NCBI GenBank assembly: GCA_002269645.1
Contig: NIVC01002023.1
Coordinates: forward strand, 1 to 59,678
Direction: 5' to 3'
Source of the DNA: Macrostomum lignano
Lineage: Eukaryota
DNA length: 59,678 nt
Shown here: positions 14,647 to 34,704 of the stretch, piece after piece
Numbering within the stretch: position 1 is the stretch's first letter
How the letters are laid out: each line of letters begins with the position of its first letter
Notes under the pieces: generated by a model
Databases searched by the model: none
What the model was told of the DNA's origin: nothing
Seen by the model: the letters and a program-made list of their open reading frames with translations, nothing else
Position numbers and translations under genes: made by a program

Positions 14647-15106
14647 AGTAGAAGGCATGAAGGGGCTTTTGGGACAAAATTTTTCACGTCCTCCATAATC
14701 CACCTAAATCCATCCATATTATCCCTGACAGAATCAGAAAAAAAGGGGGGTCGCACTCGCTCACAAAACGTCCTCCATAATCCCATTAAATCCATCCATA
14801 TTATCCCTGACAGAATCATGAAAAAGGGGAGGGGCCGCACTTGCTCCGAAAACTTCGAACATAATCCCATTAAATCCATCCATATTATCCCTGACAGAAT
14901 CAGAGCAGGTGTCAACTGATACCTGTTATGCTCACTGTGGACACCTGTTATGCTCACTGACACTGACATCATCCACCGACATCTACCCATAACATTTCTA
15001 AAACAATCAGAAAATAATCTGCATTCTTCTCCCCACATTCAATTCGCAACGTGCTACCAGATCCCTAAGACTTTAAATTATCAGCGCAGGGTCCTTACCC
15101 ATTGAA
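14647..15106 (+). repeat. Left terminal inverted repeat of the Polinton
   Basis: Near-identical reverse complement of 34285-34704. Contains three internal ccataatccc..aaatccatccatattatccctgacagaatca units and a small extra duplication (cctgttatgctcactg x2). Confidence 0.92.
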
Positions 15107-15258
15107 GAAATATAAATAATTTTATTATTCATTAGTAAGAATTATATATTTATTAACAGTTGCACAGCTGATAGGATATGTATCAACTATTACAAGATTA
15201 TCAAAAATGGTAGAAAAAACAGACACTATGTAGGATCTGAGTTAGAATTCTTCAACAA

Positions 15259-15565
15259 CATACAGAGCCAGCCTAGCGTTCCTTTGAGCCAGCAGCTAGA
15301 TTCTCTAACGCGTTAGAATTTTCTATGTGAAAATTTGGTGTGCCCAAGCTTATCTTGCGGGAAGCTTTTCACATAGAAAATTCTAACGGCGTTAGAAAAT
15401 TTCTACCCCCCTCTATTTAACCATACAGAGCCAGCCTAGCGTTCCTTTGAGCCAGCAGCTAGATTCTCTAACGCGTTAGAATTTTCTATGTGAAAATTTG
15501 GTGTGCCCAAGCTTATCTTGCGGGAAACTTTTCACATAGAAATTTCTAGCAGCGTTAGAATTTAA
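15259..15565. repeat. Two tandem 163-bp hairpin-forming units just inside the left TIR
   Basis: Perfect palindrome TCTAACGCGTTAGA at 15304 and 15467. Each unit has inverted arms gaattttctatgtgaaaa / ttttcacatagaaa(a/t)ttc. A partial third motif lies near 15675. Confidence 0.85.
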
Positions 15566-15712
15566 AACCCATTGACTGAGTTGCACACAGTACTGAGAAA
15601 ATTGCTACCCTCCTCTACTTAACCAATCGGCTGTCTCCAGTTGTTGAATCTTCTCTTTGAAATTCTAAAATATAACGCGTTAGAAAAATTCTAAATGAAC
15701 TGAATTTAAAAA

Positions 15713-16390
15713 TTACACAACTTTCCACGCAGGATAACTGGCCAAAATTTCTTCTAGAAACTTCATCTTAGAGTTTAGTTCCCTAATTGGCATTGACACC
15801 TGTCTCAAGCCTGGGTAGGTAACAGACAGTTTGTACAGACGAATGTACAAATAGCCAGTTGATTCCTGGATGTTTACATTTTTACACAAATGGGCGAACC
15901 GCACTTTAACATCTTGTCCAAAGTTCTCGGTGCGATAAGTTTTTAGCAGCCGCCCAACTTCGAGAATCCAATGTAGACCTCCAATTTGAGTCTTCTTGTA
16001 TTTTGCTAGAGCCGCCTTCACCCTAGTGATGATGTTCTGCTCGCCAGATGGAAGCTGGTGATCAACAACGTCCATCAGCTGATCAGCTAGTGTTACGCGG
16101 GATGCGTACAACTTCTCCCTGAATATCTGCAGATCCGCCATCTTCTTCTGCAGAGCCGCCGCCTTCTTCTCTTCGCTACTCACATTTTGCGCTTCATTCG
16201 CTGCGGCGATATCATCAGGGGCCATGGCGAAAAACTCGATTGGTAGGTCGCCAGTTTCTAGACCGAAAAAGGTGGTTAGTTCCTCCCTTCTTCTTGCTTG
16301 TAGATGCGACGGAATATACTGTAAAACTCTTTGTAGCATGGCACAAAGGCCTTGCTTATCTGTCAAATGAAGATTCCACTCGACTTCCAT
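15713..16390 (-). CDS. Polinton ORFan, 225 aa, predicted helical; C-terminus loosely DUF3102-like
   Basis: Intact ORF with A-rich start context (gaaaATG) and a TATTTAA ~160 nt upstream. The C-terminal stretch is ILEVGRLLKTYR...ESTGYLYIRLY. Confidence 0.7.
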   Translation of the reverse strand: MEVEWNLHLTDKQGLCAMLQRVLQYIPSHLQARRREELTTFFGLETGDLPIEFFAMAPDDIAAANEAQNVSSEEKKAAALQKKMADLQIFREKLYASRVTLADQLMDVVDHQLPSGEQNIITRVKAALAKYKKTQIGGLHWILEVGRLLKTYRTENFGQDVKVRFAHLCKNVNIQESTGYLYIRLYKLSVTYPGLRQVSMPIRELNSKMKFLEEILASYPAWKVV

Positions 16391-16911
16391 TTTCTAAATC
16401 TTCTTGTCTTCTAATCTTCTAGTTTGGCGGACGATTTCTTAGATCACTTTCAGCGTGGGCGAATTTAAGTTCGCAGTCGCCGTTTATCAGTAGCAGTTGA
16501 GGGCATATGTGGGGAGAAGCAGCCCGAGTGTTTCTGTGTTTGCTTAAATACAGCTAGCCGTAGAAAATTCTAGAAAATTCCAGACTGTACAATCTTGGAG
16601 TCAAGCAGGGAAAAACAATCGATATAGCTCAGTGTACGAGAGAACATGAGGTGTGTGAATGTGAGGGGTGAGACTTCTCTATAGACAAAGCATAGGGTGA
16701 GGAGGTGAGGAGCATGAAGGAGAAGCATGGTGGAAAGAGAGATTGTAGCCGAAACCAGTGTGCTCAAGACTGTACACTTGTGTGGAGAAAAGCGAAGCGA
16801 AGGCCAAAAGGCCAGTTTGCGATAAAATTTGGCCTTACTCGAGGCCAAAATCCTTTGCGTTCTGGCCTTTTGGCCTTCGCTTCTTTTCGCTCCACACAAG
16901 TGGAGAGAGAA

Positions 16912-17361
16912 TCATTCTGCTCTCTCAACCCCCAGCTCTTTCAACAGTCTTCCTAGTTCTTGACTTGGCGCGTGCAATGCAAAACCCACCCCACCCTCGA
17001 CGTCCATTCCCAATCCCAACTTTGCCTTACTAAAAATAACAGCTTTAACTAGCTTCCGAGCGATCGACTCACGAAATCCGCTTGAAGCCCCTATATTGTC
17101 TAGTCTCTTAAGCATTTCTTTGTCCCAGTGATTCTTCTCCTCAGGAAAATCTCTATATTTAACATCGTGCCACATGCAGACAGAGTCTAGCTCGTTCACA
17201 GGCTCATGCCCAGGATTTGGATTATCGTTTGTATCTAACTGTATTTCAAGTGGATTCAAAGGCCCGCAATATTTATAGCCGGGAAGTGTCCAGCCTTTGT
17301 TTGGATGAGGAAGCTTTTCTATCAGTCCATGTGAATCTAACTTACCACCAGAGCGTTGCAT
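16912..17361 (-). CDS. Phospholipase A2, parvovirus VP1u/adintovirus PLA2X type, 149 aa
   Basis: Ca-loop-like TLPGYKYCGP and catalytic NELDSVCMWHDVKY (HD dyad). Confidence 0.9.
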   Translation of the reverse strand: MQRSGGKLDSHGLIEKLPHPNKGWTLPGYKYCGPLNPLEIQLDTNDNPNPGHEPVNELDSVCMWHDVKYRDFPEEKNHWDKEMLKRLDNIGASSGFRESIARKLVKAVIFSKAKLGLGMDVEGGVGFALHAPSQELGRLLKELGVERAE

Positions 17362-32842: not shown

Positions 32843-32864
32843 ATATTTTTTTGTGGGTGAAAAA

Positions 32865-33728
32865 ATGGAAGCGATTGCTGAAAGACTAAATAATATTATT
32901 TCGCACTCCAAGGAGAGCATTCCTATTACAATAACTGGGCGAATTAATGACTCAAACGGGATATTTATTCAAAAATTAGAGCAGGCGATTCGCCTGGATC
33001 CAGGTGCTAATTACCATGTCTATCTTAACGACTTCACTGGTTGGTCAAACGTTCCCAATGTGACGGCAGCAAATAATAAGTTTTATTACAAATGGAAAGG
33101 TGCAGCAGCAGAACCTGTGGTATTCCCTGTGAGCACGCAAAGTGTGGATACCTACAATTACTTTCTAGAAAACGTCTTTACTAAAAGAGGCCATTTTGAG
33201 ACACCTGATATGAGTAAGCCAGAGAAAAAACTGTTCCCTGTCAAACTATCCTATGATCTCACTGTAATGAGAGTGGTCATGCAAGTTCACAAAGATGCGG
33301 AGGTTGAGTTTAAAGATGACACTTGGTATAGGGAACTGGGATTCGAGAAGAAAGTTTATAAGGCAGAATCCGCGGCGCGGACCGCCACTCAAGCGACGGG
33401 GGCTGTTATCATGGCCCGGGAAAGTGTACGCGGTTTGTTCTTAGCACCCAATATAGCAGACATTGTAAAGGGTTTGAATATTCTAATCAGAACTAATCTC
33501 AGTCTTGATTGGGTATTTAAGGGAAAGCGAACTAATATTTTGTACAACATCTCCAACTCTGTAGCTGGAGGACAGATGGTGGTAGAGAAACCAAATCCAG
33601 TGAAAAGAGTTGTATTGAGTAATAAGGAGATTCACGAGATTGTGCTACAGTTTGAGACTGAAGATGGGATGGGTGTTGATTTCAACGGTGAAGAGTTTGT
33701 ATTGACGTTGAACATTGAGAGAATGTGA
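32865..33728 (+). CDS. Minor capsid protein (penton-like single jelly-roll), ~287 aa
   Basis: PNVTAANNKFYY, ELGF, TNILY, VVEKPNP, EIVLQFETEDG..VDFNGE..LTLNI. Directly follows the MCP, with ATG at 32865. Confidence 0.8.
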   Translation: MEAIAERLNNIISHSKESIPITITGRINDSNGIFIQKLEQAIRLDPGANYHVYLNDFTGWSNVPNVTAANNKFYYKWKGAAAEPVVFPVSTQSVDTYNYFLENVFTKRGHFETPDMSKPEKKLFPVKLSYDLTVMRVVMQVHKDAEVEFKDDTWYRELGFEKKVYKAESAARTATQATGAVIMARESVRGLFLAPNIADIVKGLNILIRTNLSLDWVFKGKRTNILYNISNSVAGGQMVVEKPNPVKRVVLSNKEIHEIVLQFETEDGMGVDFNGEEFVLTLNIERM

Positions 33729-34019
33729 GAAAATGCGTTCCCTTTTAAGTAGCTCGTATGCTTACCGAAAATAGAGTGGTATGAAGAGAACTTACTATGT
33801 GTACTCAAATGAGGGCGTGGGCCTCGCGTGCGTGGGAGAGAGGGGAGTGTATGTGTGTGGGCGCAGCGCGCGTGGGGGGAGAGAGATTTTCACTTTAACT
33901 GAGCCCAGCCGAGGAAGAATTCCGTCTCGAGTGAAGGCCAGAATGCAAACGATTTCGGCCTCGCGCAAGGCCAAAATGAAAAGGGTTTTGGCCTTTTGGC
34001 CTTTTGGCCTTTCGGTTTT

Positions 34020-34262
34020 TTAACGCAATTGCTTAATGATTTCTGCAAAGTTATAGTAGCTGTCGTAATCTTTTACATAGGTTACTCCATACTTATGAAA
34101 CCAGTGTCTTTGGAGAGCTAGATTAATATTAGGGACATTGATATCAACGTCGGGCCAATATTTTCTCATGTACTCGCTGCATTCAAGTTTGCATCGGTAC
34201 TTGGATTTGTACAATGGATGAGGCTGAGTATAATAGGAACCTGGAGAGACAACTGGAAACAT
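34020..34262 (-). CDS. Small Tyr/Trp-rich Polinton ORFan, 80 aa
   Basis: ATG in ctaaaaATG context immediately inside the right TIR. No recognisable motif. Confidence 0.5.
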   Translation of the reverse strand: MFPVVSPGSYYTQPHPLYKSKYRCKLECSEYMRKYWPDVDINVPNINLALQRHWFHKYGVTYVKDYDSYYNFAEIIKQLR

Positions 34263-34284
34263 TTTTAGAGAAAATTTAATTTTT

Positions 34285-34704
34285 TTCAAAGGGTAAGGAC
34301 CCTGCGCTGATAATTTAAAGTCTTAGGGATCTGGTAGCACGTTGCGGATTGAATGTGGGGAGAAGAATGCAGATTATTTTCTGATTGTTTCTGGGTGGAT
34401 GTTAGTGGATTATGTCAGTGTCAGTGAGTATAACAGGTGTCCACTGTCTGATTCTGTCGGGGATAATATGGATGGATTTAATAGGATTATGTTCGAAGTT
34501 TTCAGAGCAAGTGCGGCCCCTCCCCTTTTTCATGATTCTGTCAGGGATAATATGGATGGATTTAATGGGATTATGGAGGACGTTTTGTGAGCGAGTGCGA
34601 CCCCCCTTTTTTTCTGATTCTGTCAGGGATAATATGGATGGATTTAGGTGGATTATGGAGGACGTGAAAAATTTTGTCCCAAAAGCCCCCTCATGCCTTC
34701 TACT
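34285..34704 (-). repeat. Right terminal inverted repeat of the Polinton
   Basis: Reverse complement of 14647-15106, ending CTACT and followed by the TSD. Confidence 0.92.

Follow-up and report, generated by a model that had tools for sequence, protein, structure and literature searches.

Alpha adintoviruses (group 2 Polintons), as presented by Starrett et al. 2021 (PMC8502044), have in common with the element analysed here a PF03175-type polB, an rve integrase, an FtsK-like ATPase, a double jelly-roll capsid, PLA2 and pX-like genes, terminal repeats and integration into animal genomes. According to that account they carry adenain, which our copy lacks, and a single PLA2X gene, whereas here PLA2 and pX are separate genes flanking the integrase; our copy also combines PLA2, described there as a mark of the Mayetiola class, with a GasderminX-like gene, a mark of the Terrapene class. 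As adenain is absent, the element is termed ‘adintovirus-like’ here and is not placed as a member of the Adintoviridae. Vertebrate Mavericks, as described by Barreat and Katzourakis 2021 (PMC8097293), likewise have terminal inverted repeats (TIRs), a 6-bp duplication, intronless core genes and tens of copies, mostly defective (96% in that description); our copy differs in its invertebrate host and gene order and is far younger than most of those fossils. In Pieris mannii Polintons, as reported (10.1101/2025.02.07.637071), polB loss is also accompanied by a LINE of an active family near a packaging gene and by more complete sisters. The Pieris derivative is reported from two or more occurrences sharing one cargo, whereas no second copy of our element was found among the matches listed, and here it is the ATPase gene that the LINE interrupts, with part of pol still present.

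The window, the whole 59,678-nucleotide stretch of Macrostomum lignano DNA analysed (contig NIVC01002023.1), contains a Polinton element at 14,647–34,704, with AG at its start, CT at its end and an exact 6-bp target duplication, TCCTTA, on both flanks (14641–14646 and 34705–34710; no strand assigned), as read in the first-pass annotation. The left TIR (14647–15117, forward strand) contains an internal 84-bp repeat and pairs with the right TIR (34274–34704, reverse strand). Their outer 258 bp are 98% matched (4 mismatches between arms) and gaps occur in the inner part (88% over 472 columns), so the earlier description of near-identical TIRs is true of the outer part only. The terminal hallmarks of Polintons/Mavericks (TIRs, AG..CT, 6-bp target duplication) are thus present. 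A variable left arm carries a 163-bp × 1.9 tandem repeat with internal palindromes (15259–15560, no strand) and the right arm an 80-aa orf (34020–34262, reverse strand). An empty target site with a single copy of the hexamer is among the contigs listed for run X11; as the flank of the element is a host repeat, this site may be a paralogue. Paralogous host repeats within the window lack ~90 bp surrounding the insertion point.

The rve integrase gene (17393–18388, forward) is open, with readable D-D-E residues and a match to PF00665 above the cutoff (E 2.5e-9; 37.7 bits). On its two sides lie an open parvovirus-type PLA2 gene without a fused pX tail (16912–17361, reverse; PF08398, E 1.7e-13) and an open pX-like gene (18405–18863, forward; Adeno_PX PF05829, E 4.5e-7), the latter weakly matching the PLA2X-like tails of related loci L004 and L012; both domains were found by Pfam search, as two separate genes. 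The major capsid gene (31556–32842, forward) is open and its 428-aa product is full length when compared with relatives of 422–438 aa. The match of this protein to PF21738, the domain carried by its homologues, is below the cutoff (E 7e-4), and its structural model, a weak one (pLDDT 53), matches the PBCV-1 and Sputnik capsids in Foldseek (E 1.7e-10; TM ~0.34), so that the double jelly-roll major capsid characteristic of Polintons is present. Scans of IMG/VR and JGI metagenomes with the capsid returned no relatives. A 287-aa orf (32865–33728, forward) matches unnamed orfs in 5/16 related loci (E 4e-10 to 4e-4) and has no Pfam match; from its position and these matches we take it to be a putative penton (minor capsid) protein. 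Pfam searches and capsid length thus bear out the first-pass annotation, in which the genes for the capsid, the integrase, PLA2 and the pX-like protein were listed as open, and an open orf does occupy the penton position. Also open are a 216-aa coiled-coil orf (22473–23123, reverse) and a 395-aa orf with a Q-rich tract (30338–31525, reverse). None of nine window proteins had an exact-sequence match in the protein collection.

Gene order was compared with 16/18 related loci (L017 and L018 left out). Two from IMG/VR, L005 and L014, share with the element PLA2 without a pX tail, the ATPase, the penton-position gene and the classes of capsid and polB, and L014 also carries the GasderminX-like gene (E 1e-10). 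They differ in having a whole polB directly followed by the protease, in gene order and in protein sequence (18–35% identity); capsid identity to IMG/VR relatives is 21%.

The protein-primed polB gene (18988–21783, forward) matches PF03175 (E 2.6e-11), in agreement with both the hallmark polymerase of Polintons and the PF03175 class of Alpha adintoviruses, and is broken at two points. In the best 120 of 3,502 matches, which include no close relative (31–44% identity), a median of 335 residues lies beyond the last aligned position, and motifs B and C, identified in 108/120 and 78/120 of these homologues, were not found in any of the six frames of the window; the C-terminal deletion noted earlier (~335 residues after 21783) is therefore real. 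Contigs listed for run X9 depart from the reference at 21783 and rejoin it at 21784, indicating sisters that continue past the deletion. The second break, an in-frame stop at 19372, had been read as a nonsense codon. The stop exists, but contigs in 2/4 runs (X11 and X9) diverge from the reference at 19365, 7 bases ahead of it, so that it probably marks a deletion or replacement junction (near 19365–19374); a simple point nonsense change was rejected on this evidence.

The reported lack of an adenain protease was upheld: when the window was searched with a profile built from orfs with a protease motif in related elements (9 orfs), no match fell below E 1. The idea that one of the unassigned orfs conceals a protease was also considered and rejected, as the best tblastn match (E 0.013 over 27 residues) lies in the capsid gene on the antisense strand. 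The protease is found directly 3′ of pol in the loci that share most genes with the element, L005 and L014, and in L007. The 21783/21784 deletion may thus have removed the protease gene too, judging by the two most similar relatives, although this arrangement is found in just 3/10 loci with a protease motif, all of them distant (~35% pol identity).

A conserved helical-hairpin gene (21784–22363, reverse), which had been listed as open, is cut by the same deletion: its native 3′ end is gone and its orf continues into antisense pol to 21686, which supplies the last 32 codons. From family pattern we take this gene to be putatively PW/GasderminX-like. Its product is modelled as a long helical hairpin (pLDDT 86) for which PDB matches are generic coiled coils only; among viral proteins the top matches come from iridoviruses (E 1e-5). 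No gasdermin is among the matches listed from fold and sequence searches with this protein, which may nevertheless be related to gasdermins.

The packaging ATPase is present as two halves, a C-terminal part with a Walker B-like motif (23140–23782, reverse; matches to L005 and L014 orfs, E ~1e-24) and an N-terminal part with a Walker A motif (29531–29703, reverse); it has no Pfam match. Between them, confirming the earlier reading, is a full-length LINE (23783–29530, forward, antisense to the ATPase) with a 13-bp duplication and open ORF1 (488 aa) and ORF2 (1234 aa; endonuclease, RT, RNase H), for which X9 and X11 contain zero-difference contigs. A 21-bp × 7 tandem repeat (29744–29889, no strand) is found upstream of the ATPase. 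The small GxG-motif gene (29936–30321, reverse), presumably encoding a core protein, is frameshifted in the window as annotated, but since the indel falls within a short run of one base, a homopolymer tract, it may have arisen in assembly. All four lesions of the first-pass annotation are therefore present in the window.

Contigs from four studies (four runs), one of which, X9, may be RNA, were compared with the window. Such contigs drop rare variants, and the comparison is based on the best-supported differences (40 of 810), indels (12 of 55), joints (15 of 186) and loose ends (24 of 4,392), so that damage to sister capsids, or contigs across the window’s junctions, could be hidden. LINE-less sisters are represented by a joint (23769 to 29531, 13-base overlap) in 3/4 runs and by a matching loose end in the fourth, with a joint depth of 1104 in X11 compared with 17–30 for rare-variant contigs, and an indel at the GxG break is seen in sister contigs of 4/4 runs. 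The use of such depths as exact copy numbers was rejected. At 13/31 listed in-element sites the letter of the window appears in no contig of any run, so the alleles of our copy are not amplified there. Among the matches listed for the four runs, whose contigs drop rare variants, the same deletion or cargo was not found at two or more insertion sites; with its breaks absent from the main sister contigs, the copy does not appear to represent a defective lineage that was amplified in these runs. As to sisters with complete pol and protease, for which a search had been proposed, there are contigs without the LINE and others (X9) continuing past the pol deletion; being contigs, they do not show any one sister to be whole. 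A 225-aa accessory orf (15713–16390, reverse), carried by just part of the family, is 99% identical to Mlig026570, a multi-locus gene of the RNA-based M. lignano annotation (at least 13 accessions), and the three residues at which it departs from the most frequent of the named sister proteins coincide with the three non-silent sites marked by the contig comparison; in the ESM Atlas it has weak, unrelated look-alikes only. Searches with capsid or pol returned no M. lignano protein, and no capsid protein was found in the RNA-based gene set of the host. Taken from these sequences, the element appears to belong to a multi-copy, recently active Polinton family.

The first-pass annotation had proposed a selective loss, with replication and packaging genes going and structural genes being retained. 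If four breaks fell at random, the chance that both capsid genes escaped would be 0.47, and the chance that none of the five named open genes was hit would be 0.21; that three of the four fall in pol or ATPase (P=0.15 by length) leans mildly towards the proposed pattern. However, the deletion also cuts the GasderminX-like gene and the frameshift hits the putative core protein, so that breaks reach putative virion genes too, and selective retention of the capsid genes is unsupported. Among the coding differences listed, 10/21 are silent compared with ~27–30% expected (P ~0.07; very small counts), including 5/8 in pol and 2/3 in the major capsid gene (Fisher P=1; very small counts). Pol has no more amino-acid change than capsid on these tiny counts, which suggest that pol was constrained until recently and capsid no more than pol. 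Most likely the capsid genes are open by chance and not kept by the host.

We consider it likely that the element was inserted not long ago, belongs to a multi-copy Macrostomum Polinton family with recent activity, and is decaying without selection; the core of the first-pass reading, a young, precisely bounded adintovirus-like Polinton with broken replication and packaging genes, is retained. Copying by polB and insertion by rve integrases are established enzymology, and what is observed here of these steps is the anatomy. A replication-competent parent would have been copied by its protein-primed polB and inserted by its integrase, generating the 6-bp duplication. The breaks would date from insertion or shortly afterwards. 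The 5′ part of pol would have undergone a small deletion or replacement, and a larger deletion (at least ~1 kb), whose junction is observed, runs from the 3′ end of pol into the GasderminX-like tail and probably included the protease gene. An active LINE has jumped into the ATPase, and slippage or an assembly indel would account for the break in the GxG gene. That the capsid, integrase, PLA2 and pX genes are open would be because there have been too few breaks so far. Unlikely, in our judgement, is a defective-interfering type of Polinton that lost pol and protease while extrachromosomal, before integration, and received polymerase and ATPase from helper sisters still active in the flatworm today, its pol-less genome being copied, perhaps packaged, and inserted by means of intact TIRs and its own integrase, with the full-length active LINE possibly being cargo. 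TIRs, ends and integrase are intact and candidate helper sisters are among the contigs (in which the wholeness of any one is not visible), making complementation possible in principle, and butterfly Polintons without polB, carrying a LINE or LTR, were apparently amplified, as described in 10.1101/2025.02.07.637071. No sign of amplification is seen here, however, as the main contigs lack the LINE and continue past the deletion, with window letters unseen at the 13 listed sites, and a single such event would be indistinguishable from decay after insertion.

Retention of capsid, penton, PLA2 and pX by the host, for empty particles or interference with related viruses, or as a source of small RNA, seems very improbable: the five named open genes and full-length capsid that it would explain are expected by chance at the probabilities given above, two putative virion genes are broken, the capsid has a non-silent private difference (1/3 listed) and was not found in the RNA-based gene set of the host, and the alleles of this copy, unseen at listed sites in contigs of the four studies, fit an unfixed insertion. 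There is just as slight a chance that some breaks, mainly the GxG frameshift, are assembly artefacts and the element is less damaged than it appears. All X11 depth at the homopolymer tract does have another length, yet neither the clean pol deletion junction nor the LINE, which has two open orfs as well as its 13-bp duplication, resembles a base-calling error, silent changes are over-represented among the substitutions listed, as they would not be among random errors, and the element would be dead regardless.

Decaying copies of this kind are ordinary, most Maverick copies being broken and young ones keeping many open frames; polB-less, LINE-carrying Polintons are already published and defective copies are the rule for Mavericks. 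A search of titles and abstracts on Macrostomum Polintons/Mavericks (subscription papers, Repbase and supplements being outside its scope) did not find the family, and searches on domesticated Polinton capsids with a piRNA link and on flatworm Polinton copies and capsid found nothing related. The value thus lies in the family, which is young-looking, multi-copy, apparently unreported and hosted by a flatworm that can be made transgenic and for which RNA data are plentiful. Little direct evidence for animal Polinton virions is described in PMC8097293, and PMC8502044 mentions one unpublished observation, so that Macrostomum could help in seeking natural particles and host control. Were trans-complementation true, this laboratory flatworm would be a system for observing helper-dependent Polinton spread and LINE carriage. 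The make-up of the family seems to vary between samples.

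The element at 14,647–34,704 is genuine: a cleanly delimited, dead copy belonging to a young Polinton family. It opens with AG at the 5′ end, closes with CT at the 3′ end and has TCCTTA flanking it on either side, which bears out the termini and target duplication described in the first-pass annotation. The terminal repeats, reported there as near-identical, are so across the outer 258 bp (4 differing positions), while the inner part aligns with gaps (88% over 472 columns). Without the LINE the element measures 14,297 bp. As the ends, repeats, genes and breaks were all found, its anatomy matches the earlier description. 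Repeated host elements nest the Polinton (11,168–14,600 and 34,747–36,728), with inverted and direct copies on both sides (80–92% identity). An empty target site is among the contigs listed for X11, one of four sequencing runs aligned here (X1, X5, X9 and X11), though the flank is host repeat and this site may be a paralogue.

Pfam matches were obtained for PLA2, the rve integrase, the pX-like gene and polB (PF03175); that of the double jelly-roll capsid is weak. The capsid has 9 homologues (top one 77% identical), against which it is full length, and its low-confidence model resembles the PBCV-1 and Sputnik capsids (E about 2e-10). The capsid, integrase, PLA2 and pX-like genes are open, as proposed; the labels GasderminX, GxG and penton are presumptive. 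The integrase is flanked by PLA2 and pX as two separate genes (16,912–18,863), and the pX-like ORF shows a weak match to the tail that follows PLA2 in the fused proteins of L004 and L012, two related IMG/VR Polinton-like contigs. A single ORF of L004 (10,220–11,254) pairs a match to PLA2 with a protease motif, which are separate neighbours in L012; it is either a fusion of PLA2X with the protease or an artefact of read-through. The GasderminX-like protein (21,784–22,363) is predicted to form a long helical hairpin with a hydrophobic turn, with iridovirus proteins as best structural matches, weaker ones to two-helix, SLATT-like membrane effectors from giant viruses, and a weak profile match to the translocator AopB (E 1e-4). 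By the Polinton/Maverick criteria the element is a Polinton; unlike adintoviruses, this copy lacks adenain, so it is described here as adintovirus-like and not as one of them. Starrett et al. (PMC8502044) assign GasderminX to the virion module, and the definition given there places the element's polB in the Alpha class.

The pol C-terminal deletion, LINE insertion, GxG frameshift and missing protease noted earlier were all found. pol lacks a median 335 C-terminal residues, including motifs B and C; a LINE of 5,748 bp (23,783–29,530), which has two open ORFs and is flanked by a 13-bp duplication, interrupts the packaging ATPase; the GxG gene (29,936–30,321, minus strand) is frameshifted; and no protease is present in the element. 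The LINE is full-length and contains RNase H, contigs of 330–530 bp in X9 and X11 match it with zero differences, and its family would be active now or have been so very recently. Two other readings had to be revised. The in-frame pol stop, taken for a nonsense codon, probably marks a junction, X11 and X9 contigs departing from the reference at 19,365, 7 bases upstream. The GasderminX-like gene, taken to be open, has lost its native tail to the same large deletion that removed the pol 3′ end, with 32 antisense codons in its place; its closest homologues end about 10–25 residues further on. In X9, one set of contigs departs from the reference at 21,783 and another returns to it at 21,784; read by eye, the few letters beyond carry pol onward at one end and the GasderminX-like gene at the other.

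The stretch 17,400–23,700 is present in 20/24 runs listed, from 7 studies of one organism; 19 of these runs contain at least half its words. Four of them, from four studies and all consisting of contigs, were compared over 15,600–35,300, and the results below come from the best-supported matches listed. Main contigs are roughly 20–50 times deeper than rare-variant contigs (about 1,100 versus 17–30 in X11; 250–310 versus 7–16 in X9), which points to a family of tens of copies, a depth-based figure rather than an exact count. The LINE-free ATPase joint is among those listed in X5, X11 and X9, and appears as a loose end in X1. At the GxG break an indel occurs in 4/4 runs, including all X11 depth there, and at 13 of the 31 element sites listed the window's letter is missing from every contig of all four. 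With sisters lacking the breaks and these letters absent, the breaks are confined to this copy or to a small minority of the family. This copy itself was not seen among the matches listed for the four runs, and contigs can drop rare variants.

A protease motif was found in 10/16 related IMG/VR loci examined, immediately after pol in three of the ten: L005, L014 and L007 (Peptidase_C5 E 0.04, 3e-4 and 8e-5, respectively). L005 and L014 have most genes in common with the element, and L014 likewise combines PLA2 with a GasderminX-like gene. Given this adjacency in distant relatives, protease absence would most simply be collateral damage of the pol/GasderminX-like deletion.

The proposed selective loss of replication and packaging genes is not upheld. 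If four breaks are distributed in proportion to coding length, the chance of missing both capsid genes is P=0.47, of missing all five named open genes (major capsid, putative penton, integrase, PLA2, pX-like) P=0.21, and of ≥3 falling within pol plus ATPase P=0.15; two damaged genes, GasderminX-like and GxG, are putative virion genes. Among the best 40 of 810 differences, all 21 in element coding regions were counted (the other 19 are non-coding, LINE or flank): 10 are silent and 11 non-silent, against an expected 27–30% or so silent (P about 0.07 at 30%). Silent changes make up 5/8 in pol versus 2/3 in the major capsid (Fisher P=1). These counts are small; they reveal no special protection of the capsid, and pol seems to have been under constraint until recently.

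Most likely, a copy of a recently active Polinton family integrated and then decayed neutrally, through two deletions, the LINE insertion and either slippage or an assembly indel in GxG. The ends, duplication, junctions and sisters without breaks are observed directly; the order of events, the protease loss and the wholeness of individual sisters are inferred. According to PMC8097293, 96% of vertebrate Maverick copies are defective. That the element is instead a helper-dependent derivative is unlikely, yet even this has precedent, since a preprint (2026 version, 10.1101/2025.02.07.637071) describes polB-less Polintons that carry a LINE or LTR as cargo alongside complete sisters. Retention of the structural module by the host is highly improbable. 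No M. lignano protein came up among the 9 capsid homologues or the best 120 of 3,502 pol matches; the accessory ORF, by contrast, has many annotated entries there, which hints weakly that transcripts of the capsid genes are not prominent. Equally improbable is that some of the breaks, above all the GxG frameshift, are assembly artefacts and the element is less damaged than it looks.

That accessory ORF (225 aa; 15,713–16,390, minus strand) lies in the left arm (15,100–16,910) with a 163-bp repeat and a palindrome (16,770–16,907). Its sole match is an M. lignano protein (222/225 identical) whose cluster holds at least 13 protein accessions in 7 sequences; no relatives were found outside M. lignano. 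This match makes M. lignano, or a species very near it, the probable host. The ORF is also the sole part of the element found in the M. lignano gene set, which was derived from RNA-seq (PMC5730564). Left-arm depth relative to family contigs is about one seventh in X11 and about two thirds in X9; this is a variable accessory arm whose share varies between samples. In the right arm, sister contigs of 4/4 runs skip about 290 bp (33,732–34,026). A GGCC-rich motif there (33,934–34,003) resembles one in the left arm (16,808–16,877), and the two may perhaps be paired regulatory elements. Elsewhere in the window, host coding stretches with LRR and PDZ (39,945–42,451, minus strand) presumably belong to a LAP-family (Scribble/Erbin-like) gene by their look. 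ORFs revealed two gypsy-like LTR retrotransposon pol regions (5,773–6,741 and 54,208–58,203), the latter nearly complete and frameshifted, and a 39/75-bp tandem array (380–1,057) is open in all three plus-strand frames.
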